Source: Dictyostelium discoideum (lineage: Eukaryota). Taken from it: DNA of 64,000 nt. The translations under genes were made by a program, and so were the position numbers. Location: assembly GCA_000004695.1 (NCBI GenBank), contig CM000152.2, positions 3,456,001-3,520,000 of the forward strand, written 5' to 3'. The notes below the pieces were generated by a model. That model had not been told where the DNA came from and ran no database searches. It saw nothing but the letters and a program-made list of their open reading frames with translations. Of the stretch, positions 8,216 through 53,042 are shown in pieces. Position 1 is the stretch's first letter. Every line of letters begins with the position of its first letter.

Positions 8216-8569
8216 TTATAATTTAATATTAAAACCAAATTTATGAAAAAGTTGATCTTTTTCAATTGAACTATAATTTAAAGAAATAATTATTGATAAA
8301 CTTTTACCACTGGTTTTATTCCTTATGAAATCCAAGTTTTGAGGATGGTGGTTAGTTATACAATTAACCAATTCTGAATATAATATTCTTTTACAAATAA
8401 CACTACAACTATTTTTCAATAAATACAATTGAAATAATATTAAAGCTCTGTCACAAAAAACTTGATTATCTAATTTCTTACCATTACTTTGAAAATTAAA
8501 TAAATTGAAAAATTTATAATTTTTAAATTTACCAATACCAAATACCAATTCTAGTGAATAATTTTCAAA

Positions 8570-8647
<78 letters not shown>

Positions 8648-10556
8648 TGAATTATTATTATTAATTGATAATTTTATAAAATTTTCTAATAATTTAAAGA
8701 AAGAATTATTTGGTGGCCATTCTATTGTTAAAAAATTTAAATTTAATAAAATCGAATTTATTAATTTAAAATTATAATTTAAACAAATTTCTAATAAAGA
8801 ATTTGTTTGTTTAACTTTAGTTAATTTTAAAATTTTTTTTAATAATTTTAAATTTCCAATCTCTAAACAATCTTTAAAAATTTGATAGAAAATATGATCG
8901 GGTGTAGTTTTTATTATATTTAAAGAGTTTTTATTGAAATCCATATAATCTGGAATACTTGATGGTAAATTTGATTTTGTGGGATGATAATTGATTGAAT
9001 AATAATTATTTAAGAAATGATTTAATTTCAAATCAAAGAAATTTGTAATTTTTGAAATGTTTTCAATGTATTTTTTCCTTTTGATTGGATTTAATGGTAA
9101 TTTTCTATTATTTACAATATGGAATAATGATCTATTAAAATTTTCATATTTTATAATTTTATTATTAATAATTGGTAAAACTAAATCGAATAGGTATTGA
9201 TAACCATTATGTTTATCAGTTGGTAATGATTTAAATAATAGGTCTAAATAAAGTTTTAAAGATTCTTCTTGATGATTCTCTTCATTGCCACCAAGGTACA
9301 TTTCACCAATGTTTATCATGAATGTTACCATCTTCTCAAAACCTAAATCAACCGCTTCAAGTAATCTCATTTTGTCGAATCCAAAAGCAACTAAATAAAA
9401 TCCAAACAATTCTAAATTTTCATTCATAACTTTACATCTAAAGAAATCTATATTAATCAATTGAGAATTCAATAAAAGATGATTATTAAAATCAGATTCT
9501 TTATCTCTAATACATTTATATTTGAATATAATATTATTCTTCATTTTATCCAATGATAAATTATTTCTATTTAATAATTCTAAAACATAATCTGAATAAT
9601 ATGGACCATTAACTGTAACTGATGATTTTTGATTAATTGTAAATAATTCATCTGATACAACTTTTTCAACCATAACCTTATATAATGGTAACATTAAATC
9701 ATCAGTACCATTAAATATACTAATATCAATTTCTAAATTTCTTAATGTATTAATTGAAATTTTAAATCCATAAATTTCAATTATTGATAATTGTATATTA
9801 TTATTATTACAATTTGTTGTAGTTGCAGTTGGTGTCCAAATAAATTTTGATAAAATTAATTTTAATATTTCTAAATTATTCATTCTAATAGTTGTATTTA
9901 TTAGACGTGAGAAATTGAAACCATTACAATTTGAAATTGTATTTTTAAAGAAAGAATATTGTCTTGGTTTTGGTTTATCTTGTGTTTGAGGATTACAAAG
10001 TTCTAAATTTTTAAAAATTCTATCAGGTAAAAGACTAAAGAATGCAGAAATTAATTGATTATTTGATTGAGTTTTATTAATTGATTCAATGATATTATTG
10101 AAAATAAAAGTGTCTGTAAACTCTTTGAAAAAGGTTATTCTATATTTTAAATTACCATTTTCATCAAATTCAAATAAATAATTAAACATTTTCATTGACA
10201 TTTCTGTTGTTGCTTTTTTAAAGAAATTTTCAATCCAATCAGTTTTACATTCTTCATATATTCCTCCTACTCCTCCTCCTACTCCTTCTTTTTCAATTAT
10301 ATTATTTATATTGGTTTCTTTTAAAATATATTCTAAAATCTCTACATTAACACCATTTTCAATAATTAAAATTTGAATATATTTATTTATAGTTTTTGCA
10401 TTTAATTCTTTTAATTTTATTGAAAATGTATTAATAAATTCTATAAATGTTGATAAATCTAAATCTTTCCATTCTAATAATAATTCAAAATCTTTGGAAT
10501 TAAATTCAACATAATATTTATAAATATCATTTATTTCAATATTATCATTATTATTA

Positions 10557-10645
<89 letters not shown>

Positions 10646-10870
10646 TAAATTATTTGAATTATTATTATTAATAAATTTTGAAAAAAGATTTAATTTTTCT
10701 ATTAACAGTTGTTTATTTCTTGTTTTTATTATAAAGTCCAGTGGAGCATCATAAAAACTATATCTTATGTATTTTAATTTTTTATTGGAAATTTTAATTT
10801 CATGAAAAATTTTTATCCTTAGATATTTATTTCTATATATGATTAAAAATAGATCTGTTTTATTACTCAT
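8216..10870 (-). CDS. Large hypothetical protein (~884 aa) with poly-N tracts; lineage-specific family
   Basis: Long minus ORF (track 8216..11029). The real start is probably ATG at 10870 (MSNKTDLFLIIYRNKYLRIKIFHEI...). The track's poly-F N-terminus comes from translating the upstream poly-A. No recognisable domain. It is paralogous to the fragmented ORFs at 21222-23301 (YLRIKIFHEIKISNKKLKYI vs YIRKINFNYIFEKKIKYMI). Confidence 0.65.
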
Positions 10871-10934
10871 TCTTATACCAAAAAAAAAAATAAAAAAAAA
10901 TAAAAATAAAAAAAAACTAAAAATAAAAAAAAAA

Positions 10935-10976
<42 letters not shown>

Positions 10977-11319
10977 TTTCTAACCAAAGTTGAGAAAAAA
11001 ATAAAAAAAAAAATTTGGCTACCAATCAATCACGTGTAATCACTTTCGGAATTAATTTACAATAAAATGATTTTTCATTATCTTCACTAGTGCAATCAAA
11101 TTTTTTTTTTTTTAAAAAGTTCAAAATATTTTTTTTATATTTTATTTTTTTTTTTTTTTTATTTTTGATATGATTATTACAAAAAACAGAAATTCATTTA
11201 CAAGTTGGATATTTTTTTTAAGGTTTATCGTTATTTTTTTTTTTTTTTTTTTTTTTTTGTTTTTTTTTTTTTTTTTTTTTTTTTTCTATTTTTTTTATTT
11301 AGATTTCTAAAAATAAAAA

Positions 11320-13196: not shown

Positions 13197-15121
13197 TCTG
13201 TAATATTATACCAAATTTAAAATCAAATGGAAATAATCAATACATATTATATGGAGATTATGTTGGTACAAGTTTAACTACAATAACTTCAACCTCTATA
13301 TATTGGACATTTAAAAACTATACTTATTTTACAGGTACTTTAAGTGGAACTGCTCCATTAGTTTTTAATATAACCTATAGTGAGATTGGAAAATCATTTT
13401 TTTTATTTACAACCCCAACACCGCCAAATGTAACATATGTTGAACAAACAAATGATTCACCTAATCATTTCCAATTTATTGGTACTTATTTTAACTATAA
13501 TATATCCACTATAGAAATTAAAATTGGTGATAGAATTTGTAATGTACAATCTTCAACATTTTATCAAATTAATTGCTACGTTGATAATGCATTCGCTTCA
13601 AATGAAAAAGATTTAATAACTAGAATTAAAGTTGGTGAACAAATTTCACAAATTACTATAACCCCATATCAAAACAATACTATAATACCATGTGATAGTG
13701 ATTGTAGTAATGGTATTTGCTATACTAATAATGGTACATGTATTGGGTGTCCTTCAAATTGTAATAATGGTAAATGCAATCCTACACTTGGTAAATGTGT
13801 TTGTAATTCAGATTATATTGGTTCAGATTGTTCAATTCCATTACAATATCTAACATCAATTGTACCAATTATTTCAAATTCAGAAGGAACAGTTCAATTA
13901 TTTGGTTTATTTGGTAATGTTAATGATGGTATCTCTATTGAGATTGGTGGAAGAAATTGTAATATTACTTTTATTAATAGTCAAACTATTAATTGTACAT
14001 TAAATGGAGGTAGTGGTTTAGTATCTGTAAATGTTACACAAAATGGTTATACTTGGTTTAAAAAGAATTATTTCAATTATATAATTCCAATTCAAAATTG
14101 TCCAAACAATTGTAATTCTGATAAAACATCTGCTAGTGGTGGTGGTGGTACTTGTGATACAAATATTGGACAATGTATTTGTAAAAATGGATTTGTTGGT
14201 ATTGATTGTTCACCACAAGCTCAAGAAACTATAATTCCAATTTCAAATTCTTCAGTGAATTTAACAACAGGAGTTTCAAAAATTACAAATGAACAAACCA
14301 ATTTTGAAATTAAAGTTATAGCATTATTAGAAATTGATTTAAATGGTAATACAGTTTTAAATCATCCACTTGTAAATAATTGGAATATTGATGAAAATGA
14401 ATCAACAAAACAAGGTCAATATGCATTTTCTCAATTATTAGATACAAATAAAAATTGTAAAGTAGTTACAATTATTGAAGAAGTTTCAAAGGATACTCAA
14501 TATTCATTTGCAGGTGTTAATTTCTTAGTATTTGCAAATTCTTTAAAATTAACTATATCAATTAATAACTATACCTTTATTAGTTCATTAAATTCATTAC
14601 AACTTCAAATTGAATCATTGGTTAGTATTTTACCAACAACAACTACTACAAATAAAGAAAATAGTTGTAAAAATGATGAATCATCATCAAATACTACAAG
14701 TATTGATACATCTGGAATTACAACAGATACAATATTGAATTATATTACAATTGAAAAAAATAATAAAATCTTTACAGGTAGATTCATAAATAAATTATTA
14801 TCAGATGGTAGACCAACATTTTTCTCATCCCAAGTAGTAAATAGAAATAATGAATCCTTAATAATTGGTTTAGATCTTTCTCATTGTTCGAATTGTGTTA
14901 TTGACCCAGATTTCTCAGTATTGGTTTCAAGTTCATTTAAAACAACAACGACAACAGATTGTGAGATAAACAACAAAAATAATTGGAAAATCCCTGTTGC
15001 TGTAGTAATTAGTGTTGTTGGATTTTCAATGATTGTTTTAATATCAATGATAATTTTTAAGAAACATAGAACTCTTATAAAAGTTAAAGTTTTAACAGCA
15101 ATTAAATTAACAAAAAGATAA
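13197..15121 (+). CDS. Exon 8 (large 3' exon) of LRR/EGF-like surface protein: Cys-rich EGF-like modules, a probable IPT/TIG-like region, and a C-terminal TM anchor
   Basis: I checked the frame by hand from 13199 and found it stop-free through CDSDCSNGICYTNNGTCIGCPSNCNNGKCNPTLGKCVCNSDYIGSDCS and CPNNCNSDK...CDTNIGQCICKNGFVGIDCS. It ends with the TM segment IPVAVVISVVGFSMIVLISMIIF and basic KKHRTL. Stop at 15119-15121. The ORF track shows only the last 288 codons (14255..15121). Confidence 0.75.
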
Positions 15122-15531: not shown

Positions 15532-17130
15532 TCAAGTTTCATGTTCAACAACCGCAGCATGAAAGTAGGAACTTATGGGTCGTCTCGATGGTGAAGCAGA
15601 CCATGTATTTGAAGATATATGATATTTGAAATGAGTTGTGCTTCTATCACCAACCAGATATATAATATTTTGTTCGGAAGGTGGATAAGATTCATCTTTT
15701 CCAATTGTCATTGAAAAACCGAATCTCATGGTGGTAATTGGTGGATAGGCTAAATGATGAATTTCAAAGTTATATAAATTTAAAGTGAAAAATGAATCAA
15801 TGGTTATAATGAAAAAATTTTCACCATCAAAGCAAACACCTTCAATTCTATTTTCGCTTTTATCTAATTTGTCGTAGAGTACTTTGATTTTGTTTGTTTT
15901 TAAATCTAAAACTTCGATATTGTTGATGATTGAGAAATAAGATTCTTCTTTGGTTTTATTTGTGCCACCTATAATATACAAACTATCATTATGTAAAATG
16001 GTGAAACAATAATAACGTGGATGAATTAAAGATACCAATGTTGTAAAATGTAATGAACCATTTTGTGTAAATGTACACTTTTCGATTTTGGCTGATGTTT
16101 GATTAAATTTAACACCACCAATTAAATAGATGCAATTGTTTTTCTTGTCATAGGTTGCCGACATTGAAGAACCTCCACCATTGGGAATACTGCCTCCATT
16201 TTCCCATTTATTTGTATGTATATTAAACTTTTCGTAGGTTTCTAAACTATCATTTCCACCAAAAATATAGATTATACCATTTGCCAATACACCAGCATCC
16301 GCAACACATGCACGCTTATGTTTTGTGGGTGGCATGAAGGACCATTCATCTTTGTATGGAGTATATTTCACACATCTAGAAAGATGTAGTTTATCTTCCA
16401 TACCACACAAAAAGAAAATTGATTTTACTTTACAAACTGGATCTTCAAAATTTGGTGGTCTACGTGGAGCATTTGCAATTTGTTCCGATACTTCAACTTT
16501 TGTTTCACCATCTAAAGGTAAATGTTGATTTTCCATTTGAGATCTGGAAATAAAAGCCTTGAGGTTGTTTTTGCCCATAGATTGATTAATTTCATCTTCA
16601 CCAGGAGTTTTATCAAGTGCTTCAACTCCAGTTTTAAGATTATCACCACCTTTTGTTTCACCATCTAAAGGTAAATGTTGATTTTCCATTTGAGATTTGG
16701 AAATAAGAGCCTTGAGGTTGTTTTGGCCCATAGATTGATTAATTTCATCTTCACCAGGAGTTTTATCAAGTGCTTCAACTCCAGTTTTAAGATTATCACC
16801 ACCTTTTGTTTCAGAATCAACAGATTGCTGTTGTTTTGTATTGAAAACAGCATTGATTCGTATTATTGATGTTTCGGTTGTTGTTTTATGTGGTGTATGT
16901 TGTGAGTTTTCTTGTTTTATTTGTCTGGAGGAGATATTTGAGGTTTGTTGTTGTTGTTGTTTTTGTTGTTGTTGTTGTTGTTCTTGTTCTTGTTGTCGTT
17001 GTTGTTCTTGTTGTCGTTGTTGTTCTTGATGTCGTAGTCTGGGGGATATATTTGAGGGTTGTTGTTGTTCTTGTTGTTGCTCTTGATGTCGTAGTTGTTC
17101 TTGTTCTTGTTGTAGTTCTTGTTGTAGTTC

Positions 17131-17201
<71 letters not shown>

Positions 17202-18408
17202 CTTGCGTTTTTTCGTTAACTACATTATTTGATTTTTGTTTTTCATAATCGGACGATTGAGAAGATGATGGTAAGACTGGTTTAATGTTTTGGGATGGTA
17301 ACTGTTGAGAAATATATGTTGGTGAAGATTCTGGTGTTGATGTTGTAGTTGCTGTTGGTGTTGGTGTTGATATTGGTGTTGATATTGGTGTTGATATTGA
17401 TGTTAATGTTGATGTTGATGTTGGTGTTGTCGATAATGATGATTCTGATTCCAATGACGATTCAGATTGTGAATTTTCTATTGCTTTTAAAGCACATTCA
17501 CAATCTTCAATAGAATTATTAGAACAATTACAAGTATAAGTTACGAATAATTTACCAAATAGTTTAGTGATTTCATCGGCGGTCTCTTTATTAAAATATA
17601 GTTTATTATGGTGTGTGTCTTTAATTTTTTTTTTTTCGGAATTATATTTATCTATTGTTGGTTCGATGGAACTAATATTACTTATGAAATTTGCAATTTG
17701 GTAAATGTTAAAGTCTGTTTGTCCCAAGGACTTTTCCAACTCTACATGGTCTTTGATTTGCTCATATTTTAATTTCAATTGTTCATAAAAGAATGAGAAT
17801 GTACTATCACTCTTTTGAACTGCTAACTCTATTTGCTTTTTAATTTTATACTCACCCATTTGCACTGATTTTAAAATAACTATGGTTTTTGCTTGAACTG
17901 ATTCCATTTGTTTTTCAGTGTCGTTTTTTAAAATGTCTCTCAGATTTTCAATTTCTTTCGTTAAACTTTCTATATCTTTTTTTAGTGAGGCTGCTGATTC
18001 ACATATTTTCTTTGCAGTGGTTTTTATTATTTCCCTATATTTTTCATCGTCTGGAATTGCAAATGTATGACCATTGTGATTTGTTATAACGCATGTTTGA
18101 CATACTGGAACAGTGCACATTTTGCAAACACTAAAATAAACTTGATTTGCATGTATGTGGCACGGATTAGTTTTTGATTTTACATCATCCACAAGCTGCT
18201 TTAAAAATGTATCGGTTGAATATTTTTTAACATCCACATAGCAATGCGGGCATTTAAAGGTTATCTTTGAAGACCCATCGCTCTCCTTCGCTTTATTTAC
18301 ACACTTTAAACATACACGATGTTTGCACGGTTTAAGTATTTGAGGTTCTATATTTAAGTCCAAACAGACCGGACATAACGTTACAGAACTCATATTCATT
18401 ACTTTCAA
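15532..18408 (-). CDS. RING finger / B-box / coiled-coil / Kelch-repeat protein (TRIM-like RBCC architecture), 958 aa
   Basis: N-terminal C3HC4 RING (CPVCLDL...CKHRVCLKC...CPHC). B-box-like CHIHANQVYFSVCKMCTVPVCQTCVITNHNGH. A long predicted coiled coil follows. The C-terminus carries Kelch-type blades (IYIFGG, IYLIGG, LYIIGG). The middle part holds a poly-Q/(TTG)n tract and a perfect 51-aa tandem duplication. Single exon. Confidence 0.8.
16501..16806. repeat. Two tandem copies of a 153-nt unit inside the TRIM-like CDS (encodes a 51-aa repeat GETKGGDNLKTGVEALDKTPGEDEINQSMG.NNLKA.IS.SQMENQHLPLD)
   Basis: 16501-16653 and 16654-16806 are identical except for about 4 substitutions; period 153 = 3 x 51, so the frame is preserved. 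Confidence 0.9.
16920..17210. repeat. (TTG)n/(CAA)n microsatellite-rich tract (poly-Q/Glu-Gln region of the TRIM-like protein)
   Basis: Long runs of ttgttgttg... seen directly. Confidence 0.9.
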
Positions 18409-18815
18409 TATTTATTTTATTATATCTATTATTGTTATTGTCGCTATTTTTATTATTTATTAAATTTTTATTGTTGTTTTTAGTCGGTACTATTATTATT
18501 ATTATTATTATTACTATTATTAAAAAATCAGGTTCTGGTTGGAATTAAAAAAATTTAATATTAACGTTAATTTTAAAAATTAATAAATATCAATAAAAAA
18601 AAAAAAATAAAAAATAAAAAAAAATAAAAAAAAAATAAAAAAAATTAAAAAATGAAATTAAAAAATCAATAAAAAAAAAAAAAAACCGATTTGTAAAAAT
18701 ACTTTTATAATAATAAATTTTAATTGAAATATATGGGCTGGAAGTTATTTCTATATTATCATAATACCTAAGGATAATTTATTAATATATAATTTTTATA
18801 GAGATATCATATGGG

Positions 18816-18840
<25 letters not shown>

Positions 18841-18863
<23 letters not shown>

Positions 18864-19863
18864 CTCTGAATATAAATACTATTATTATCCACCTACATGA
18901 CTAATTTGTTTTTTTTAATTAATTTTTATTACTATTTATTATTTTAGAAATTCTATTTTCAAAATTGATTAATAGAGTTTTTTTTTTAAAAAAAAAAAAA
19001 AATCTGATCAAACCTTATATTTCTTTTATATATATTGAAAAAAATGTTTGATTTATTATTTATTAAAAAAAAAAAAGAAAAAAAAAAAAATGTGTGGGTG
19101 ATAGAAAAAAAAAAAAAATAAAAAAAAAAAAAATTAAAAAAAAAATCAATTAATTTTTTTTAAGTCAACTCAAAAATTAAAAAAAAAAAAACTACATAAT
19201 ATTTCAAAGAAAAAGAAATAGATTATATCTATTAAATTGAAGTTAAACTCAAAAAAATAAATTTGAGAGGTCTTATTTTATTATTTTTATTTTTTAATTT
19301 TAGTTTTGATTGATATTTTAATATTTAAAATTAAATAATTTTTTTTTGGATAATTATTTTTGTTTTCTTGTTTCTTTGTTGGATACTTTCATTAATAAAT
19401 TTATATAAGATTTATTAAATATGAAATTAATTTTGAAAAAAAACACAATTGTTAATTGTTAATTGTGTCATTAGTTTAGTTTTTAAGAGTTTTGGAGTTC
19501 TTGAGGTTTCAACATTTTCAATTGTTTCAATATAGCCAAAGTTGTATTTTCTTGTTATAGAAATAAAATAAATCTTTATATGGAATTTAATTAGAAATTG
19601 AAAATTCCAAATGAAGATTTTTAATTTATTTATTTCATTTTTATTTATTTATTTTATAATGATTAACACCATTATTATTATTATTATAATTTTTATTATT
19701 ATTATTATTTTCTATAAAATAGATATGGGGATATACAAAGAATAAAGATGGACATTATTGTTTTTTATTTTTATTTAATTTAAAATACCAATTGGTGTTA
19801 ATTATATTAGATAAATAAATAATTTTCTTTCTAAATATGGTGGTAAAAAAACAAAAAAAAAAA

Positions 19864-19894
<31 letters not shown>

Positions 19895-20205
19895 TACACA
19901 TATGTCTCCAAAAAAAACAAAAAAATTTTTTATAAAAAAATCAGGACTTAATTTTATAACAAAAACTATCCCACTGAAAAAATATAAGTATCCCACTTAA
20001 TTTATATATTTTTTTTTAATTTTTTTTGATTTTTTTTTTTTTTGTAAAATTAAGTCTTCCTTAATAAAATTTATTTTTAGTTTTCCAATTGTTCCATTTT
20101 AATTCTGCAGCATTACATTTTTGAATTTCGATTTAATCTTTGATTTTAATGAGTTTGGAAATAATTAATAAGTATACTTATTTTTTTTTTTTTTTTTTTT
20201 TTTTT
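18841..20205. repeat. Copy 1 of a tandemly duplicated AT-rich block (segments Y-Z-W; no embedded gene)
   Basis: aatactattatccacctacatgac (about 18878) matches 20351. ggataattatttttgttttc...ttcattaataaatttat (about 19349) matches 20688. tatcccacttaa appears twice (about 19965 and 19990) and again at 20988/21009. attacatttttgaatttcgatttaatctttgattttaatgagtttggaaataat (about 20111) matches 21160-21225. Identity is roughly 80-90% with indels. Confidence 0.7.
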
Positions 20206-20206
20206 A

Positions 20207-21221
<1,015 letters not shown>

Positions 21222-21245
<24 letters not shown>

Positions 21246-23300
21246 GTATAAAAAATTAATTAATTTTGAATTTCCACTTTTTACAACTTTACGACAAATA
21301 TTAATATCATTATATTGGAATAAATTATTTAAAGCATGATAACTTGTAAATAAAATTGAATTACCAATTAAAATATTTGCATTAATTTTAAATCCAATTG
21401 AATTAATTAAGTCTAGTAATTGATTAAGTATTACATTTGTTAATCTTGTTTTACCATATGTGTAGATATATTTTAAAATTAATTCAATTACTGATATGTT
21501 TCTATCAATAAATGATTGTTCTTCATCTTCAAAATAAAATGTTTGTTGATTATCATTAAATGAACCATCACATTTAAATAATTGAATAATTGTTTCTAAA
21601 AATTCAATTATTTTAATTAAATCTTCATTTGTACCAGTATCGAATTTCTTTAATAATTCAATAGAAACCTTTGGATTGAATTGACACTTTGTTGAAATGA
21701 ATGGGTGAAATGAACTTGAACATGCAATTATAAATAAATTAATATCAACATTAAGATAAGCATGTTCAATTAAAATATTCAATATTTTACCATCACTACC
21801 AAATCTTTCTAAACTTTTATAATCATTAAATTCAATTGAATATTTAATTGATTTTTCAATCCAATAATATTTATCAACCAATAATAATTTCTTGTAATCA
21901 ATTATAATTCTTTTAAAAAATATTGATTTTATAATTTTAATAATTTTATTTTTAATTCCTTCAATTTTAATTAAAGTTATTGATTTTTCATTTTCTTTTA
22001 TATTAATATTATTAAATTCATTTAAAAATTTAAAATAATTTTTATACCCATATAATGAAAAAATTGATTTAATTTCTTTATTTATAATTTTAAAAATTTC
22101 AATACCTTCGAAATTTAATTTTTCAATTTCAATTAAATAAAAAATTATACCAAATAAATTAATTAATTGTTTTTCCCAATTTTCATTTTTATTTCCATTA
22201 TTATTATAATTATTATTTTGATAAATTAAATTTGAAATTAATTTTAAAAATGTCTCTTTATTTTTTAAAGTGAATAAAACATTTTTTTTAATTTTAATAA
22301 ATAATCTTAAAAATAAATTAAATTTAATACCAAATAAATTTGAAATTTTAATTGTAAATTTATTTGGTGTTGGGATTTTATTTTTAAGAAATACTTTTAA
22401 TTAATTTATTATTTGATGTTGATGAAAGTGCAAAATTAATTGACTTTTCATTTAATTTTAAAAATGTAAAATTAAATTTTTTATTTTTATTTTTATTATT
22501 TTTATTATTTTTATTATGATTTTTAAAAAATTTTGAAATTGTTTCAAATGTACCATATTTTAAAATTAAATCAATTAATGATTGAAATGATATTTTATTA
22601 TTAATTGTTAATAGTTCATCATTTATTAAATCATTTATTAATAATTGTGAAATTAATGAATTATTTATGAATTTTAAATTATTATAAATTATATTTATAT
22701 GTTTATTATTATTATAAAATAAAATTAACATTTTTTGATTATTTTCATTTATTGGTTGAATAATTTGAAAGAATTTAATGAAATAATATAAAATATTATT
22801 ATTATTATTATTATTAAAATTATTAAGATTATTTGGATTATAATTATCTTAATCCAAATCAAATTTAAAATTAAATGATGGATTATTTGATTTTATAATT
22901 TTATCAAATAGTAATTGATATTGATTATTGTTTACCATCCATTCAAATTTAATATCATCATATTTTAAATTATTTTTTATTGTTGATATTTCTAATATTT
23001 TATTATTATCAATCATATATTTAATTTTTTTTTCAAAAATATAATTAAAATTTATTTTTCTAATATAACAATTACCCATTACCAATTTATATAATATATA
23101 CATATCTCTAATTTGATGATTCTTATTTTTATTATTATTATCAATTAATATTAATTCATTATTTATTTGAATACTATGATTAAATGAATATTTAATGTTT
23201 GTTGTGGATGTATTATAAATTGACAAATTATTCTTATTAATAAAATTTAGAACCAAATCATTCGATAAAAGATAATGATTGGTTATTTTTGAAATTACCA

Positions 23301-28693: not shown

Positions 28694-31600
28694 TTAAAAA
28701 TTCTTTTCATTTTCTTTATGAAAATCAGTTTGATATTTAACTAATTTACTGAATTTTGAATTTTTAGTATTAATTAAATTAATTGGTGTATCATATTCTA
28801 TTAATTCACCTTTATCGACAACAGCGATTTTAGTACTATCAATGATTGTGTCGAGTCTATGTGCAATTGTTAGCATTGTACAATCATTGAAATTTTCAAG
28901 TAAAGTTTGTTTAATTAAATCACCTGTTACATAATCTATACCAGAGGTAGCTTCATCCATTAGGACTACTTTAGAATTCTTTAAAATTGTTCTTGATAAA
29001 CAAAGTAATTGCTTTTGACCAAACGATAAACCGTCACCACCTTCTTCTATCATAGTTTCTAATTTTAATGGCATTGATGAAATTGTTGATTTTAATTTAA
29101 CCTTTTCTAAAGCTACCCAAATTTCACTATCAGTGTATTTATTAAATGGATCGATATTTAAACGAATAGTACCAGAGAAAATGAATGGATCTTGTGGGAC
29201 AATACCAAGTGAACTTCTTAAATCGTGTAATCCAATCTTTGAAATGTCAATACCATCAATTAAAATTGAACCTTTAGAACATTCAACCATACGGAATAAA
29301 CTTATACCAACGGTACTCTTACCTGCACCAGTTCTACCAACAATACCAATATGATCATTTGAATTGATTTTAAATGATAAATTTTTTAAACTTGGTTCTG
29401 AAGTTGGACGATATCTAATTTCAACATCTCTAAATTCAATTTCACCTTTAGATGGCCATTTTTCATTTAAATTAATCATATTTTCTTCTCCTTCTTCTTC
29501 ATTATCAATTGTAAATCTATTACCTTCTTTTGGAGTATTTATATAACTTTCAATTCTTTCAACTGAATTCATTTTAACTTCAAGTTCTACAAATTGTCTA
29601 ACAGCCCAATTTAAATAGGTACACATTCCAATTGCAGTTGTAACAGATAAAACAGAGAAACCAGCATTTGAATTGAATAAGGAGAAGAAAGCAGTTAAGA
29701 AAACAACTAAAGCAGAGATAAATTCTAAACGTACACCAATCCATCTATGAATTGAAAAACTATAATAGAATAAACGTAAATTAATATTGATATGATCTTG
29801 CATCATTGAAATGAATCTATTTTGTTGTTGATAGCTTCTAATTGTAACCAAACCATTAAAAGTCTCTTGTAACAATGAGAAGATTGGACTTCTTGTAATT
29901 GATTCATATCTTTTTAAATCCCTTGATGATACAGCATAAATATTCTTTATAATATTATAAACTATAATTAACACTAAAAATGGTAAACTAATTAATGGAC
30001 TAATATAAATCATAACGCAAATTGCGAAAACGACAGTCGAACCACAATAAAGTACATCAGAGAATAAATCATATAATAGTAAATCAATCTCGGCAATATC
30101 CTTACTAAATCTATTTAATATACGACCTGATGGATTCGTATCAAAGAATTGACAACTTGCAAAACCAACTGAATTCAATAATGATGTATGTAAATTCTTT
30201 GATGCTGAAAATGTAACATGTGCCAACATAAAATATCTAATTACCAATGTAACTATAAATAATCCAATGAATATTATATAATAAAATATATAGAAACTAT
30301 CTGATTTACCTTGAAGTTTATGTTGTGACCATGTTGATAACCAAAAATCTGTCATTTGGAAAATCGCTTGACTAAAGAAATAAACTACACAAGTTGCAAT
30401 AAAAAAGAATGTTGATGAACCATGTTTAAAATATTCTCTATAAACATGTAATCCAATTGCACCTTCACTTTTATCTTCTTTTACTAATAATTTTGCTTTT
30501 TCAATTAAATTTGAATCATGTTTATCACTAATAATTTCATCAATATTAATTAATTTATTTGATTCAATCAATGAATTTGATTTTTTCATTGGATTTTCAT
30601 CAATAATTTCATTTTCATCATGTTGTTGTTGTTGTTGTTGTTGTTGTTGGTTATCAATATTTAATTTCTTTGTTTTCATAATTGATTCGAAATCAATACC
30701 TTTTGATTTTAATTCTGAGTAAGTACCTTGAACTAATTTACCATTATCAACAACAACTATATGATCAGCTGATGGAATGAATTGAAGTTGATGTGTAACT
30801 AGAATACGTGTTTTATCATTCATCATACCTTGAATACAATGATTGAATAAATGAGTTGCAACTTCTGGATCAACAGCTGATAAAGGTTCATCTAAAATAT
30901 AACAATCTGAATTTGCATATAATGCACGTGCCAATGATATACGTTGTTTTTGACCACCTGATAAATTAATACCACGTTCACCAATCTCTGTTAAATCTTT
31001 AGCTGCTAATTGTAATAAATCTGGTGCGAGACAACATGCTTCAATTACTTTTTTATAACGTTCTAAATTCATTTCATTACCAAATAAAATATTCTCTCTT
31101 AATGATGTACTTAATAAAAATGATTGTTGAGTTGTAAATGAAATTTTATTTGGAGTATTAACTCTACCACTAACTTTATAAATTTCACCAATTAAACCAC
31201 TAACTAAACTAGTTTTACCACTACCAACTACACCACAAATTATTGTTAATTTACCTGCTGGTGCTTTAAAATTAATATTATTTAATAAATAAGATTCATA
31301 ATTATTATTATTATTATCATCTGTGGTTGTTGTTGTTGTTTCATATTCTTCTTCACTCTTTTCAATTAATCTTTTTTTAATTTCATTTTTATTATTATTA
31401 TTATTATTATCACCATTATTAGTTATATAATCATCATTATCTTGATTCCAATTAAAAGTACCATTATCAATTAAAATATCATCATTAATAGATTTATTAT
31501 TGAAATTTATAAATGGTTGAGTTTGAATTTCAGATAATTGTAAAAATGATTCAACTCTTTTTGCAGAAGGTATTAAACCTAATAAATTATGAATTGCTTC

Positions 31601-31975
31601 TGGTAATCTCATAATTGGTTGTCTAAGATTAACGAAAATTGTAATTGCTGTGAATGCAACTGATAATTCAATTTCATTATTAATTGAATAAACTGAAAAT
31701 GTTGAAACTAATACAACAGCATTTGTAGTTTGTGATAACATCTTTTCAAAAATTGCAAATATTACACGTCTATATAAATATTTTAATTGTAATCTTCTTT
31801 GTTCTTCAATTCTATCTAAAAATAATTTCTCCCATGCATATAATTTTAAAAATCTAATACCATTTATAAATTCCGATGTTAAATTACATCTTGTATCTGA
31901 ATATCCTAATGATAACATTAAATTTTTACTCATTTTTGATCCAAAAAATGTATTAATTGGTAATGATATAATCAT
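28694..31975 (-). CDS. ABCC transporter copy A, exon 3 (rest of TMD1, NBD1 with Walker A GVVGSGKTS / signature LSGGQKQR, TMD2, NBD2 with Walker A GRTGAGKST / LSFGQKQL)
   Basis: 1093-aa ORF. Acceptor ttaatag immediately precedes ATGATTATATCA. Full ABC hallmarks. Stop at 28694-28696. Confidence 0.9.
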   Translation of the reverse strand: MIISLPINTFFGSKMSKNLMLSLGYSDTRCNLTSEFINGIRFLKLYAWEKLFLDRIEEQRRLQLKYLYRRVIFAIFEKMLSQTTNAVVLVSTFSVYSINNEIELSVAFTAITIFVNLRQPIMRLPEAIHNLLGLIPSAKRVESFLQLSEIQTQPFINFNNKSINDDILIDNGTFNWNQDNDDYITNNGDNNNNNNKNEIKKRLIEKSEEEYETTTTTTDDNNNNNYESYLLNNINFKAPAGKLTIICGVVGSGKTSLVSGLIGEIYKVSGRVNTPNKISFTTQQSFLLSTSLRENILFGNEMNLERYKKVIEACCLAPDLLQLAAKDLTEIGERGINLSGGQKQRISLARALYANSDCYILDEPLSAVDPEVATHLFNHCIQGMMNDKTRILVTHQLQFIPSADHIVVVDNGKLVQGTYSELKSKGIDFESIMKTKKLNIDNQQQQQQQQQHDENEIIDENPMKKSNSLIESNKLINIDEIISDKHDSNLIEKAKLLVKEDKSEGAIGLHVYREYFKHGSSTFFFIATCVVYFFSQAIFQMTDFWLSTWSQHKLQGKSDSFYIFYYIIFIGLFIVTLVIRYFMLAHVTFSASKNLHTSLLNSVGFASCQFFDTNPSGRILNRFSKDIAEIDLLLYDLFSDVLYCGSTVVFAICVMIYISPLISLPFLVLIIVYNIIKNIYAVSSRDLKRYESITRSPIFSLLQETFNGLVTIRSYQQQNRFISMMQDHININLRLFYYSFSIHRWIGVRLEFISALVVFLTAFFSLFNSNAGFSVLSVTTAIGMCTYLNWAVRQFVELEVKMNSVERIESYINTPKEGNRFTIDNEEEGEENMINLNEKWPSKGEIEFRDVEIRYRPTSEPSLKNLSFKINSNDHIGIVGRTGAGKSTVGISLFRMVECSKGSILIDGIDISKIGLHDLRSSLGIVPQDPFIFSGTIRLNIDPFNKYTDSEIWVALEKVKLKSTISSMPLKLETMIEEGGDGLSFGQKQLLCLSRTILKNSKVVLMDEATSGIDYVTGDLIKQTLLENFNDCTMLTIAHRLDTIIDSTKIAVVDKGELIEYDTPINLINTKNSKFSKLVKYQTDFHKENEKNF

Positions 31976-35759: not shown

Positions 35760-39125
<3,366 letters not shown>

Positions 39126-44768: not shown

Positions 44769-47404
44769 TTACTTTTCTTTAAATAGATTATGATGATGTT
44801 TTACTAATTTACTGAATCTTGATTCTTGATTTTCAATGAGATTATTTGGTGTATCATATTCTATTAATTTACCTTTATCAATAACAGCGATTTTAGTACT
44901 ATCAATGATTGTATCGAGTCTATGTGCAATTGTTAGCATTGTACAATTTTTAAAACAATTATTAATAGTTTGTTTAATTAAATCACTTGTTACATAATCT
45001 ATACCAGAGGTAGCTTCATCCATTAGGACTACTTTAGAATTCTTTAAAATTGTTCTTGATAAACAAAGTAATTGCTTTTGACCAAACGATAAACCGTCAC
45101 CACCTTCTTCTATCATAGTTTCTAATTTTAATGGCATTGATGAAATTGTTGATTTTAATTTAACCTTTTCTAAAGCTACCCAAATTTCACTATCAGTGTA
45201 TTTATTAAATGGATCGATATTTAAACGAATAGTACCAGAGAAAATGAATGGATCTTGTGGGACAATACCAAGTGAACTTCTTAACTCGTGTAATCCAATC
45301 TTTGAAATGTCAACGCCATCAATTAAAATTGAACCTTTAGAACATTCAACCATACGAAACAAACCATTACCAATTGTACTCTTACCTGCACCAGTTCTAC
45401 CAACAATACCAATATGATCTTTTTGATTTATTTTTAATGTGAAATTTTTTAAACTTGATTCTCCTGAATGACCATATTTAATTTCAACATTTCTAAATTC
45501 AATTTCACCTTTAGTAAGCCATTTCTTTGATAATTTAAAACCATCATAATCATCATTATCAAAATCAAATTCCTCCTCTTCTTCTTCTTCTTCTTCTTGT
45601 TGTTCATTTCTGAAAAAGTTAATTTTAGAATTACCTTCTTTTGGAATATTTAAATAACTTTCAATTCTTTCAACTGAATTCATTTTAACTTCAAGTTCAA
45701 CCATTTGTCTAACTGTCCAATTTAAATAACTACACATTCCCAATGCAGTTGTAACAGATAAAACAGAGAAACCAGCATTTGAATTGAATAGGGAGAAGAA
45801 TGCAGCCAAAAAAACTACAATTGAAGAAATGAATTCCAAACGAACTGCTACCCATCTATGAACTGAAAATCCATAATATGATAAACGATGATTAGTGTTT
45901 ATACGATCTTGCATCATTGAAATGAATTTATTTTGTTGTTTATAACTTCTAATTGTAACCAATCCATTAAAAGATTCTTGTAACAATGAAAATATTGGAC
46001 TTCTTGAAATTGCTTCTAAACGTTTCAATTCTCTTGATGATTCTGTATATAATCTTTGAATGAAATAATAAATACCAATCAATAATAGAAATGGTATAAT
46101 TATTAATGGACTAATATAAATCATTATACCAATTGAAACCAGCACTGTTGAACCACAATAAAGCACATCAGAGAATAAATCGAATAATAATAAATCCACA
46201 TCACTAATATCCTTACTAAATCTATTTAATATACGACCTGATGGATTCGTATCAAAGAATTGACAACTTGCAAAACCAACCGATTTTAATAACGATTGAT
46301 GTAAATTCTTTGATGCTGAAAATGTAACATGTGCCATCATAAAATATCTAATTACCAAGAAAATTATAAAACCCACTATAAACAATAAATAAATTGATAT
46401 ATAATATTTATCTGTTTTATCAGGTATTGAACGTTGTGACCATGTTGATAACCAAAAATCTGACATTTGATAAATGATTTGGCTAATCATATAAACTATG
46501 CATGTCATAATAAACAATGGTATAGATGAACCATGTTTAAAATATTCTTTATAAACTCTTAAATTAACTGATCCTTCATTTCTATCCTCATCTACTAATA
46601 ATTTTGATCTCTCAATTAAATTTGAATCATTTTCATCACTTATAACTTCATCAATATCTATTAAATTTGAAATATTATTATTATTCTTAATACTATTATT
46701 ACTATCTTCATCACTTAAAACTATATCATTTTCTTTTTCGTGCTGTTGCTGTTGTTGTTGATTATCAATATTTAATTTCTTTGTTTTCATAATTGATTCG
46801 AAATCAATACCTTTTGATTTTAATTCTGAATAAGTACCTTGAACTAATTTACCATTATCAACAACAACTATATGATCAGCTGATGGAATGAATTGAAGTT
46901 GGTGTGTAATTAGTATACGTGTTTTATCATTCATCATACCTTGAATACAATGATTGAATAAATGAGTTGCAACTTCTGGATCAACAGCTGATAAAGGTTC
47001 ATCTAAAATATAACAATCTGAATTTGCATATAATGCACGTGCTAATGATATACGTTGTTTTTGACCACCTGATAAATTAATACCACGTTCACCAATCTCT
47101 GTTAAATCTTTAGCTGCTAATTGTAATAAATCTGGTGCGAGACAACATGCTTCAATTACTTTTTTATAACGTTCTAAATTCATTTCATTACCAAATAAAA
47201 TATTCTCTCTTAATGATGTACTTAATAAAAATGATTGTTGAGTTGTAAATGAAATTTTATTTGGAGTATTAACTCTACCACTAACTTTATAAATTTCACC
47301 AATTAAACCACTAACTAAACTAGTTTTACCACTACCAACTACACCACAAATTATTGTTAATTTACCTGCTGGTGCTTTAAAATTAATATTATTTAAAGTG
47401 TATG

Positions 47405-47467
<63 letters not shown>

Positions 47468-48065
47468 GATTACCATTACCATTACCACTACCATTACTAT
47501 CAACTTGATTCCAATTAAATGATCCATTATGAATTGAGATATCACCATCTGAATTTATATCATCATCATATTCATCTTCCTCTTCCTCCTCTCTATTAGA
47601 AGAATGATTTTGTTGAATTTCAGGAGATTTAAGAAAATCTTCAACTCTTTTTGCAATTGGAATTAAACTTTGAAGTTGTTGAATTGAATTTGGTAATCTG
47701 AGTAAAGGAATTCTTAAACTAACGAAAATGCTAATGGTTGTAAAAGCAACCTCTAATGTGATTTCATTATTAATTGAATAAACTATAAAAGTTAAAACCA
47801 AAACGATTGCATTAACAGCTTGTTTCATCATTTCAGCAAAAATCCAAAAAATCATTCTCTTATAAAGATACTTTAATTGCAATGATCTCTGCTCTTCAAT
47901 TCTATCTAAAAACAATTTTTCCCATGCATACATTTTTAAAAATCTAATACCATTTATAAATTCACTTGTTAAATTTGTTCTTTTATCTGAATATCCCATT
48001 GATTCTTTTAAATTTTTACCAATTTTTGATCCAATATATGTATTTATTGGAAATGTTATAACCAT
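44769..48065 (-). CDS. ABCC transporter copy B, exon 3 (TMD1 remainder, NBD1, TMD2, NBD2), 1098 aa
   Basis: Acceptor ttttag immediately before ATGGTTATAACA. Walker A/B and ABC signature motifs present. NBD1 (about 200 aa) and the NBD2 core are identical to copy A; the low-complexity linkers differ ((CAA)n poly-Q here vs poly-N/poly-T in copy A). Confidence 0.9.
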
Positions 48066-50772: not shown

Positions 50773-53042
50773 TTAAGAATTTTTAGCTTCTTCTCTCTTT
50801 CTACGACGTTCTTCTCTTTCTTGGTCAAGGCTTTTTGGTTCTTCTTCCAATTCTCTTTCTTTTTGGTCTCTTGCGAGGCTTCTTTCTTCTTGGCTTTTCT
50901 TACGTTCTTCTTCAAGTTTATTAGCTTCTTGTTCTAATTCTAAACGACGTTGTTCACGATCTCTTCTACGTTGTTCTTGTTCAGAGAGCATGAGATTACC
51001 ACTTGAATTTGAAGGAGAGGTATTACTGATTGGAGTTGGTGATGAGGAGGAAGGATTTGAAGGTGAGGAAGAGGAAGAGATTGGAGAGGATACTGATGGT
51101 CTATCGAGTTCTCTGGCTTTCTTTCTAGCTTCACGCTCAGCTTCAATTCTTTTGCTTTCCTCTTCGACCTCTCTCTCAATTTGTTCTTTTCTTAATCTTC
51201 TTTCTTGTTCACGTTTTCTACGTTGTTCTTCGAAACTATCTAAATCTTTTTCTTTCTTTTCTTTGAGTTCACGTTCTTCTTTTTCTTTTAATTCTCTTTC
51301 TAATCTTTCCTTTTCCTCCTTTTCGTGTTGAATTTTTTCAAGACGACGTTGCTCACGTTCAATTTCATCCCTCTCTCTTTCAAGACGACGTTGTTCACGT
51401 TCACGCTCACGCTCAAGTTCTTTCTCACGTTCACGTTCAAGTTCCTTCTCACGTTCAAGTTTTCTTTCTTCTCTATCTTTTTGTTCCTTTTCGAGACGAC
51501 GTTGTTCCTTTTCACGTTCACGTTCCTCTTTTTGACGTTTTAATTCCTTTTCACGCTCTTTATCCTCCTTTTCACGTTGTTCTTTCTCAAGACGACGTTG
51601 TTCACGTTGTTTCTCACGTTCAATTTCAGCGAGCTCCTCTTGTTCTCTCTCTTCTTTTTCACGTTGTTCTTTCTCAATACGACGTTGTTCACGTTGTTTC
51701 TCACGTTCAATCTTTTCTTGTTCTTCTTTTTCTTTAATAGCTTCTTTTTCTTCTTTTAATTTTTGTAATCTTTGTTCTCTTGTTAATTCAATTGGTTCTG
51801 TTGATGGTGATGATAATTTTTGTTCTTCTTCTTCTTGTTCTTCTTTAATTGGTTCTGGTTTTTGTTCTTGTTCTACATTATTATTTGTATTATTATTATT
51901 ATTATTATTATTATTTTCTTGATTAAATGATAATCTTTTTTGTTTTCTTTCTCTATCAATTTCTTCCAATTCTTTTTGTCTTTGAGTTTTTAATGAATCT
52001 AAACTATCAGCACTTGGACCACTTTCACCAAATTGATTAGAACCTTCCAAACTAACAGATTGACGTTTCTCTTTACGAAGACGATCAATTTCTTCCAATT
52101 CTTTTTGTCTAGTTGAACCACGTTCAGTATTACCATTATTTTGAAGGAATATATTATTTGCATTTCTTTCTTTTCTTGATCTTTCAATCTCCTCCAATTC
52201 TTTTTGTCTAGAGTTAACTCTATTTTCATTCTCTTCCTCAGTTGATGAAACTTGACTAACTGGACCTTTATTCTCTTTTCTAAGACGATCAATCTCTTCT
52301 AATTCCTTTTGTCTACTTGGTGTATTTGATGAATCATCATTATTGTTAAATGAAGAAAGGTGTCTTTCTTTACGCATTCTATTAATTTCTTCCAATTCTT
52401 TTTGTCTTTGTGAAACTGGATTTTCATCTGGTTGATTAATTGCTGCTGCTGCTTGTTGATATGATAAACTAACACTACCTCTTTTATTTATTGGTGCATT
52501 ATTATTATTGATATTACTATTACTAGTATTATTAAAACCTACTGACATTCTTTGTTGTTTCTTTTCTTCATCTTCTTGTTTTTTCTTTTTCTCTTGTTCT
52601 TCAATCTCTTTAATTCTATTCTTTAATGTACTACTATTTGGATCATTTAATTGTCTAATCTTTTGAACTTCTTCACGTTTAAATCTTTCCTCTTCTTCTT
52701 CTCTTCTTCTTCTTTCACGTGCTTCCTCTTCAATTTTCTTTCTATTCTCTTGTCTAATTCTATCTTCTTCTGCTCTTTTGGCTGCAATTGCAGGATCAAC
52801 GGCTTTCTTTGTTGGTACATTTGCACCATTTGGTGTTTTAGTTTTTATACCTTTCTTTTCTCTCTCTTTCATTAATAACTCTGTCAACTGTTCACTTGAT
52901 AATTCTTGAAGATTAAATGAAATACCATTCTTTTTAGAATATGGTGCATCTGGTGATTCTGGATATGTCTTTTTAAAATAATGATACAATTCTGATAAAT
53001 AAGTCATAATACTTCTTCTATCTAATCCACCTGGAATTAATA
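50773..53042 (-). CDS. Exon 2 of CH-domain protein: end of CH domain (LIPGGLDRRSIMTYLSELYHYF), six RQKELEEI[DE]R.RKE repeats, and a ~250-residue ER/K-rich predicted single alpha-helix/coiled-coil region
   Basis: Acceptor ctttatag (minus) at 53043-53044, phase-matched. ORF 50773..53007. The E/R/K tract is encoded at about 51200-51780. Confidence 0.8.

Follow-up and report, generated by a model that had tools for sequence, protein, structure and literature searches.

A TRIM-like RING/B-box/coiled-coil/Kelch gene and a recent tandem duplication in its linker in Dictyostelium discoideum

Does an amoeba encode a protein built like the TRIM ubiquitin ligases of animals, and what is to be made of a tandem duplication inside its gene? 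The question is raised by a long minus-strand open reading frame (ORF) in a 64,000-nucleotide (nt) stretch of the Dictyostelium discoideum genome (assembly GCA_000004695.1, contig CM000152.2, positions 3,456,001 to 3,520,000; hereafter the window, numbered from its first letter). A sequence-only reading of this ORF had proposed an RBCC arrangement (RING, B-box, then coiled coil) followed by C-terminal Kelch blades, had described this combination as usually regarded as a metazoan innovation and therefore notable in an amoeba, and had reported a perfect internal duplication of 51 amino acids (aa). Our analysis of this locus, the RBCC-Kelch gene, suggests with a probability of about 0.75 that it is an intact, selectively maintained gene encoding a single-chain TRIM-like RING E3 ubiquitin ligase, in which the duplication reflects turnover of a near-neutral linker.

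The frame was entered in the ORF list as 15532..18408 (minus strand, 958 aa), counted from a TTG codon that reflects bacterial start rules and is artefactual. With its first ATG at 18399 and its stop codon at 15532-15534, the ORF is uninterrupted and intron-less. In a three-species alignment, the orthologues from D. citrinum and D. dimigraforme both start at a Met equivalent to this ATG, and their gene calls are likewise single-exon (843 aa for D. dimigraforme, 778 aa for D. citrinum). Residue positions of Pfam matches are given in the 958-aa numbering, and those in the feature table in the 955-aa numbering that begins at the ATG. There may be a UniProt/dictyBase entry named 'RING finger domain and kelch repeat-containing', so that the gene perhaps has an automatic annotation already.

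A Pfam scan placed the RING, B-box and Kelch domains above curated cut-offs, with zf-C3HC4 at residues 12-56 (22.3 bits, cut-off 21), zf-B_box at residues 79-116 (25.6 bits, cut-off 24.1) and Kelch models within residues 707-955 (Kelch_6, 54.4 bits; Kelch_1, 46.3 bits). Together with a coiled coil modelled by AlphaFold2, this bears out the domain order that had been proposed. All eight RING zinc ligands are present (C9, C12, C25, H27, C30, C33, C50 and C53) and are conserved in the amoebozoan family alignment, as is the CPVC motif of the RING, and the PDB matches of this domain include the RINGs of TRIM31, TRIM21 and TRIM28. The B-box2 is equally complete (C80, H83, C92, C95, C100, C103, H108 and H111), and its pattern, C-x2-H-x8-C-x2-C-x4-C-x2-C-x4-H-x2-H, is invariant in 8/8 aligned family members. 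As the gap between the RING and the B-box spans just 22 residues, there is no B-box1.

The AlphaFold2 model of residues 1-260 (mean predicted local distance difference test score (pLDDT) of 75) contains a 107-residue helix, residues 119-225, that begins straight after the B-box and reaches a pLDDT of 96, followed by a second helix at residues 231-259. When this model was compared with the PDB using Foldseek, the highest-ranking match was the tripartite motif of KAP1/TRIM28 (E = 2e-7), with TRIM21 and TRIM72 next, and the N-terminal sequence alone matched the TRIM28 RBCC (6qu1) over residues 13-159 with E = 2e-7 in a PDB search. A family profile was built from eight amoebozoan N-termini (240 positions) and searched against PDB sequences. 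This revealed TRIM3 (8amr) as the best match (E = 1.9e-18, profile positions 4-204 of 240), with further matches to TRIM28 (E = 4e-17), TRIM72 (E = 9e-17) and the RING-B-box of TRIM21 (E = 1e-16). The alignments to TRIM3, TRIM28 and TRIM72 are single and contiguous, running through the RING, the B-box and about 100 residues of coiled coil. The B-box plus coiled-coil part was also matched, both by structure and by profile, by PDB entry 9ya0, the pre-conoid ring protein PCR5 of Toxoplasma gondii, which is a further non-animal B-box/coiled-coil protein.

At the other end of the protein, phmmer matched the C-terminal ~300 residues to the Kelch domains of KLHL12, KLHL20, KLHL2 and KEAP1 (E = 1e-14 to 1e-9). 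The AlphaFold2 model of this region has a predicted template modelling score (pTM) of 0.77 and ~24 strands, and Foldseek aligned it over ~300 columns with the six-bladed propellers of KEAP1, KLHL12, KLHL2, KLHL3 and KLHL20, with template modelling scores of 0.64-0.72. Blades 5 and 6 are divergent and are assigned with lower confidence. There was no Pfam match in the protein to BTB or BACK domains (E <= 1) or to MATH. The C-terminal domains by which TRIM proteins are classed are SPRY, NHL, filamin, FN3/COS, PHD-bromo, MATH, ARF, a transmembrane segment or none, and the Kelch domain of the RBCC-Kelch protein is none of these.

The design is not confined to the window. A HMMER scan with the N-terminal 307 residues against 1.84 billion representative proteins returned 167 matches at E <= 1e-3, with no self-match, and exact-sequence look-ups of the RBCC-Kelch protein and of two neighbouring proteins likewise returned no record. 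D. dimigraforme and D. citrinum each contributed one of the top two matches, both of them short RBCC-only proteins, and the RBCC-Kelch orthologues were located directly downstream of these loci (L001:9922-12453 in D. dimigraforme and L002:11791-14127 in D. citrinum). The window is colinear with both contigs at 74-87% nucleotide identity over ~20 kb, which confirms that the gene is amoebozoan and places it in a group-4 Dictyostelium near D. citrinum. Both orthologues have B-box and Kelch matches in Pfam, and that of D. dimigraforme has a RING match at E <= 1e-3. The RBCC-only paralogue itself lies upstream of the orthologue in both sister species (L001:8001-8651 and L002:10001-10645). No trace of a relic of it was found at positions 18409-21300 of the window, which points to a lineage-specific loss.

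More distantly, a B-box, a coiled coil and Kelch repeats are combined in the EukProt proteins P0003, P0006 and P0083 and in a protein of Physarum polycephalum (P0127). The Physarum protein has a clear Pfam RING and four strong Kelch_1 repeats (E = 3e-51). The RING is weak in P0006 (E = 1.8e-3 to 4.1e-3, under curated cut-offs), P0003 lacks the first RING Cys pair, probably owing to a truncated gene model, and P0083 gave no Pfam RING match. The Kelch region of P0083, which phmmer and a blade hidden Markov model (HMM) had missed, was found by an HMM built from the Kelch alignment. Word-indexed protein searches with the full protein, the N-terminus or the family alignment gave nothing useful, recovering just P0008 of the alignment members; words of poly-Q and an absence of 5-mers in common probably account for this. 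A Pfam scan of the best 111 RBCC homologues found a B-box in 99 and a RING in 98, and among their C-terminal domains NHL was the most frequent (15), ahead of filamin (10), SPRY (5) and Kelch (4). All four Kelch cases are non-animal, namely P0003, P0006, P0083 and P0127, and every non-amoebozoan scan match whose name was looked up is an animal TRIM (TRIM2/3-like, TRIM45, TRIM56-like or RFP-like). The syntenic orthologues and the Physarum relative of the same architecture indicate that the RBCC-Kelch design is old within slime moulds and is no one-off.

Codon-based comparison of the three orthologues (window, D. citrinum and D. dimigraforme) revealed that the ends of the protein evolve very differently from its middle. 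The ratio of non-synonymous to synonymous substitution rates (dN/dS) is 0.18-0.19 for the RING and B-box (64-73% amino-acid identity), 0.35-0.41 for the coiled coil (46-54%), 0.6-1.4 for the alignable part of the linker (33-61%) and 0.12-0.15 for the Kelch domain (84-86%). The RING/B-box and Kelch regions are thus under purifying selection and the linker drifts near neutrally. This pattern, two constrained ends with a free-running spacer between them, indicates that the gene is functional.

By analogy with solved TRIM proteins, we infer that the RING would recruit a ubiquitin-charged E2 enzyme, that the B-box2 and the long coiled coil would dimerise the protein, in the antiparallel manner of TRIMs, and that the six-bladed Kelch propeller would bind substrate, taking the role that the NHL propeller or the SPRY domain has in animal TRIMs. 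The ~400-residue linker evolves almost neutrally through the gain and loss of simple repeats and larger units, with the 153-nt duplication as one such event.

Several findings weigh against this proposal. The AlphaFold2 model of the N-terminus has a pTM of 0.30, and the Pfam TRIM_CC model does not match the protein. The RING scores are marginal, with zf-C3HC4 alone passing its Pfam cut-off. In the D. citrinum orthologue, Asp stands where the RING should have its His zinc ligand (CKDRVC versus CKHRVC), and there is no RING match at E <= 1e-3. At the position that follows the final RING Cys, where TRIM RINGs usually have Arg or Lys, the three orthologues carry Tyr, Asn or His. These features of the RING would suit a protein that serves as a scaffold or adaptor without catalytic E3 activity, its degenerate RING no longer engaging E2 enzymes. 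We consider this quite unlikely, as all eight RING ligands are present in both the window and D. dimigraforme, the dN/dS of the RING and B-box denotes constraint, and the conserved CPVC motif is typical of RINGs that bind E2 enzymes; a TRIM-like ligase remains the reading that we prefer.

How such a ligase relates to animal TRIMs depends on what is known of their distribution. The tripartite motif was described in 2008 as exclusive to metazoans (Sardiello et al. 2008; PMC2533329), a view revised when TRIM37-like genes were reported from many eukaryotes, including one in D. discoideum, with the other subfamilies remaining animal-specific (Marin 2012; PMC3503706). The idea that RBCC-Kelch proteins are a metazoan innovation mixes up two matters: the tripartite motif, on which the published view has changed, and its pairing with Kelch, which is mentioned nowhere in the text of the later survey's TRIM classification and which, among the best 111 homologues, was seen in the four non-animal proteins alone. 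A review of cell-autonomous defence in Dictyostelium, published in 2018, likewise names a single D. discoideum TRIM (PMC5758549). These accounts, together with the failure of the TRIM_CC model to match, would be in keeping with an independent assembly of the RBCC module in Amoebozoa by domain shuffling, the protein then resembling TRIMs without shared descent of the tripartite module. Such an origin appears unlikely given that the profile aligns without a break from the RING through the B-box2 to ~100 coiled-coil residues of TRIM3, TRIM28 and TRIM72 (E in the order of 1e-17 to 1e-18), that the named matches outside Amoebozoa are all animal TRIMs, and that domain order and spacing are constant across Dictyostelia and Physarum.

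Comparison with characterised proteins suggests, by analogy, that the RBCC-Kelch design is functionally closest to the animal TRIM-NHL proteins (class VII; TRIM2, TRIM3, TRIM32 and TRIM71), with a KLHL-type propeller replacing NHL. Both have a RING, a B-box2, a long coiled coil and a six-bladed target-binding propeller, no solved structure matches the family profile of the Amoebozoa better than the tripartite motif of TRIM3, and many of the top library matches are TRIM2/3-like. The RBCC-Kelch protein differs in having Kelch for NHL, no filamin repeat, no B-box1 and a ~400-residue linker before the propeller. KAP1/TRIM28, its best single-sequence PDB match from the RING through the start of the coiled coil, is with TRIM72 the best Foldseek match at a sequence identity of ~16-18%, but TRIM28 has two B-boxes and a PHD-bromodomain tail, and TRIM72 a PRY-SPRY domain. 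The propeller, on the other hand, is closest in sequence and fold to those of the BTB-BACK-Kelch (KLHL/KEAP1) Cullin-3 adaptors KLHL12, KLHL20, KLHL2 and KEAP1, with which it would share a presumed role in capturing substrates for ubiquitination. The RBCC-Kelch protein has neither BTB nor BACK, and its ligase function would be built in through the RING and not borrowed from Cullin-3/Rbx1.

Two dictyostelid proteins are relevant in this context. DdTRIM (DDB_G0273381) belongs to the TRIM37-like subfamily A, the only TRIM lineage reported outside animals, and is the only TRIM named in D. discoideum. The RBCC-Kelch protein differs from this lineage in lacking MATH and in its best matches, which are TRIM3, TRIM28, TRIM72 and TRIM21, with TRIM37 not among the PDB matches listed; MATH is also absent from the 25 most frequent Pfam families of the best 111 homologues. 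KeaA (DDB_G0271500), the sole experimentally studied dictyostelid protein of this general layout, was characterised by Mantzouranis et al. (2010), who remarked that the RING-Kelch combination is uncommon and noted an example from C. elegans (PMC2920877). Like the RBCC-Kelch protein, KeaA has an N-terminal C3HC4 RING, a Cys-rich middle and six C-terminal Kelch repeats without BTB, so that a RING combined with six Kelch repeats is not new to Dictyostelium. Compared through its published description, KeaA is set apart by its size (1207 aa) and by having no B-box or coiled coil described; as there is no KeaA-sized protein among the best 150 RBCC matches, it probably constitutes a distinct family. 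A literature search found no paper describing the RBCC-Kelch family, and none on DDB_G0271372 or 'RING finger domain and kelch repeat-containing'.

Between the coiled coil and the propeller lies the linker that harbours the duplication. Its 398 residues are rich in Q, S, E, T and N (78 Q, 43 S, 38 E and 36 T) and its mean hydropathy lies below the Uversky boundary, a composition from which we judge it to be probably disordered. Linker length and repeat content vary widely between species; polyglutamine (polyQ) is shared by the window and D. citrinum, where D. dimigraforme has (PQ)n. Tandem Repeats Finder (TRF) reported the duplication at 16497-16813, with a period of 153, 2.1 copies, 98% matches and a score of 613. 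The unit limits given in the sequence-only reading, 16501-16653 and 16654-16806, are correct and codon-phased, and the match between units A and B is far above chance (blastn E = 7e-73). The copies are nevertheless not perfect at the protein level, with 48/51 residues identical, and the mismatches number three and not about four: 150/153 nt are identical, and unit positions 82, 100 and 110 differ (codon positions 1, 1 and 2; Q/K, L/F and K/R). All three changes are non-synonymous and none is synonymous. Positive selection on the repeat was considered as an explanation and rejected, as this pattern is not significant and ~40% of random triplets reproduce it. No further copies of the 153-nt unit were found within the 64 kb.

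Three copies of an 11-nt string, TGAAACAAAAG on the coding strand, punctuate the repeat: one precedes unit A, one marks the A/B junction and one follows unit B. The ends of the repeat are sharp, and the flanks past the outer copies are unrelated. Unequal exchange or replication slippage between two TGAAACAAAAG direct repeats 153 nt apart is most likely to have given rise to the duplication. No synonymous differences separate the units, against a synonymous divergence (dS) of 0.5-0.85 from the window to D. citrinum. The current pair is therefore young relative to the split from D. citrinum, in agreement with the proposal that the duplication is recent and in frame.

The linkers of the sister species add to the history of this place. 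The D. citrinum linker contains two 'heads' (TKGGDNLKT...TPGED) 144 nt apart, 75-79% identical to each other and each 82-83% identical to the heads of the window, and unit A with the start of unit B is colinear with the D. citrinum series head1-tail1-head2 (69.6% over 230 nt, E = 2e-27). A second 'tail' is not present in D. citrinum, and the D. dimigraforme linker has one recognisable head and no significant internal repeat. In D. citrinum, then, an older two-copy layout occupies this place in degenerate form, and repeats have arisen or been remodelled here more than once. These observations also bear on whether the duplication might be an expanded repeat created during assembly. The AT-rich sequence of Dictyostelium makes tandem repeats difficult to assemble, but false doubling of a segment would normally leave two identical copies. 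An artefact appears very improbable, as the copies differ at three sites, the reading frame is preserved and the independently assembled D. citrinum has its two heads in a colinear arrangement at the corresponding place.

Two linker histories fit these data: an ancestral two-unit layout that was recently homogenised, or independent duplications in each lineage. Under the former, the two-unit layout would predate the D. citrinum split, and the 98% identity of units A and B would result from gene conversion or from contraction followed by re-expansion through unequal crossing-over. The D. citrinum heads are no closer to each other than each is to the window heads, the colinearity of unit A and the start of unit B with head1-tail1-head2 is as such a history would predict, and a three-species protein alignment sets D. 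dimigraforme segments opposite both units. We hold this history as possible but tentative, for the identical tract stops exactly at the unit boundaries, with its 11-nt microhomology and unrelated flanks, features that suit a fresh duplication of the whole unit more than a conversion tract. The lack of a second tail in D. citrinum and of a significant repeat in D. dimigraforme makes independent events about equally parsimonious, and alignments of the linker are of low complexity and uncertain. For the window lineage, the sharp ends with their bounding microhomology speak for a recent duplication, or re-duplication, of the whole unit.

Whichever history applies, units have repeatedly been gained and lost in the linker. 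In a near-neutral linker whose D. citrinum counterpart also has repeated units, the duplication is ordinary repeat turnover and hardly an event of note by itself. It adds 51 residues of spacer, most likely with little functional effect. One finding speaks against this part of our proposal: the 20-residue head of the unit is recognisably kept in D. citrinum (82-83% nt identity) and weakly in D. dimigraforme, so the unit is maybe not a purely neutral spacer.

The features of the gene are collected in Table 1.

Table 1. Features of the RBCC-Kelch gene, with positions in the window and residues counted from the ATG.
Feature	Position	Strand	Basis
RBCC-Kelch coding sequence, complete, single exon, 955 aa + stop	15532..18399	minus	ORF list, orthologue start, orthologue gene calls
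C3HC4 RING finger, aa 9-53, C-x2-C-x12-C-x-H-x2-C-x2-C-x16-C-x2-C	18241..18375	minus	Pfam zf-C3HC4, conserved ligands, PDB matches
Single B-box type 2, aa 76-113	18061..18174	minus	Pfam zf-B_box, eight invariant ligands
Coiled-coil region, ~140 residues, long helix aa 119-225 + return helix aa 231-259	17623..18045	minus	AlphaFold2, Foldseek, family profile
Low-complexity linker, ~400 aa	16429..17622	minus	Composition, hydropathy, TRF, dN/dS
CxC-x8-CxC motif, TYTCNCSNNSIEDCEC, aa 287-302, just past coiled coil	17494..17541	minus	Three-orthologue alignment
S/T-rich tract in linker	17323-17472	minus	
PolyQ/E tract in linker	16945-17202	minus	
Whole repeat, 2 x 153 + 11 nt	16497..16813	minus	TRF limits, flank comparison
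Tandem unit A, aa 532-582	16654..16806	minus	TRF, pairwise alignment
Tandem unit B, aa 583-633, matching unit A at 150/153 nt and 48/51 aa	16501..16653	minus	TRF, pairwise alignment
Six-bladed Kelch beta-propeller, aa 658-955	15535..16428	minus	Pfam Kelch_6, Kelch_1, Kelch_4; phmmer; AlphaFold2; Foldseek

The linker holds other elements besides the 153-nt repeat. The CxC-x8-CxC motif, whose four Cys are kept in 3/3 orthologues, may be a small metal-binding element, and is reminiscent of the 'cysteine-rich region' described in KeaA (PMC2920877). TRF also reported a 24-nt-period repeat at 17335-17429 (4 copies, 81% matches) that encodes an (STPI)n-like Ser/Thr/Pro tract, and the Q-rich tract contains a degenerate, older 114-nt tandem repeat (16898-17011 versus 17012-17125, 75% identity), each copy of which carries an SNIS[PS]R motif.

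Convergent to the RBCC-Kelch gene is a ComC-like gene at 14255-15121 on the plus strand, with further exons upstream, whose ComC supersandwich domain was matched with E = 2e-57; this neighbour is kept in both D. citrinum and D. dimigraforme. Paralogues of the RBCC-Kelch gene were searched for inside the 64-kb window and none were found, and a tRNA scan of the window found none. Elsewhere in the window, the minus-strand ORFs at 28694-31975 (1093 aa) and 44769-48065 (1098 aa) each encode two ABC transmembrane and two ATPase stretches; lying ~13 kb apart in a shared orientation, they are probably paralogous ABC-transporter genes. No Pfam family was matched at E <= 1e-3 in the ORFs at 8216-11029 (minus strand, 937 aa), 35760-39125 (plus strand, 1121 aa) and 50773-53007 (minus strand, 744 aa).

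The duplication offers a clean example of microhomology-flanked turnover of a coding repeat in a linker that is probably disordered, and the 153-nt repeat could serve as a length-polymorphism marker between strains. The architecture is of moderate interest for the deep history of TRIMs. It is conceivable, if doubtful, that Amoebozoa and animals inherited an RBCC-propeller E3 from their common ancestor and that it survives as RBCC-Kelch in slime moulds and as the TRIM-NHL type in animals. Were this so, the combination of a tripartite motif and a six-bladed propeller would be no animal invention, the TRIM family outside the TRIM37 lineage would reach back much further than surveys state, and at least two TRIM lineages would be present in Dictyostelium. 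A conserved RBCC-Kelch family in Dictyostelia and Physarum, with a module that matches TRIM3, TRIM28 and TRIM72 end to end, changes the published distribution of TRIMs. With this family, an amoeba that is genetically tractable gains a second TRIM-like lineage, which provides a simple system for the role of an RBCC ligase with a propeller outside animals.

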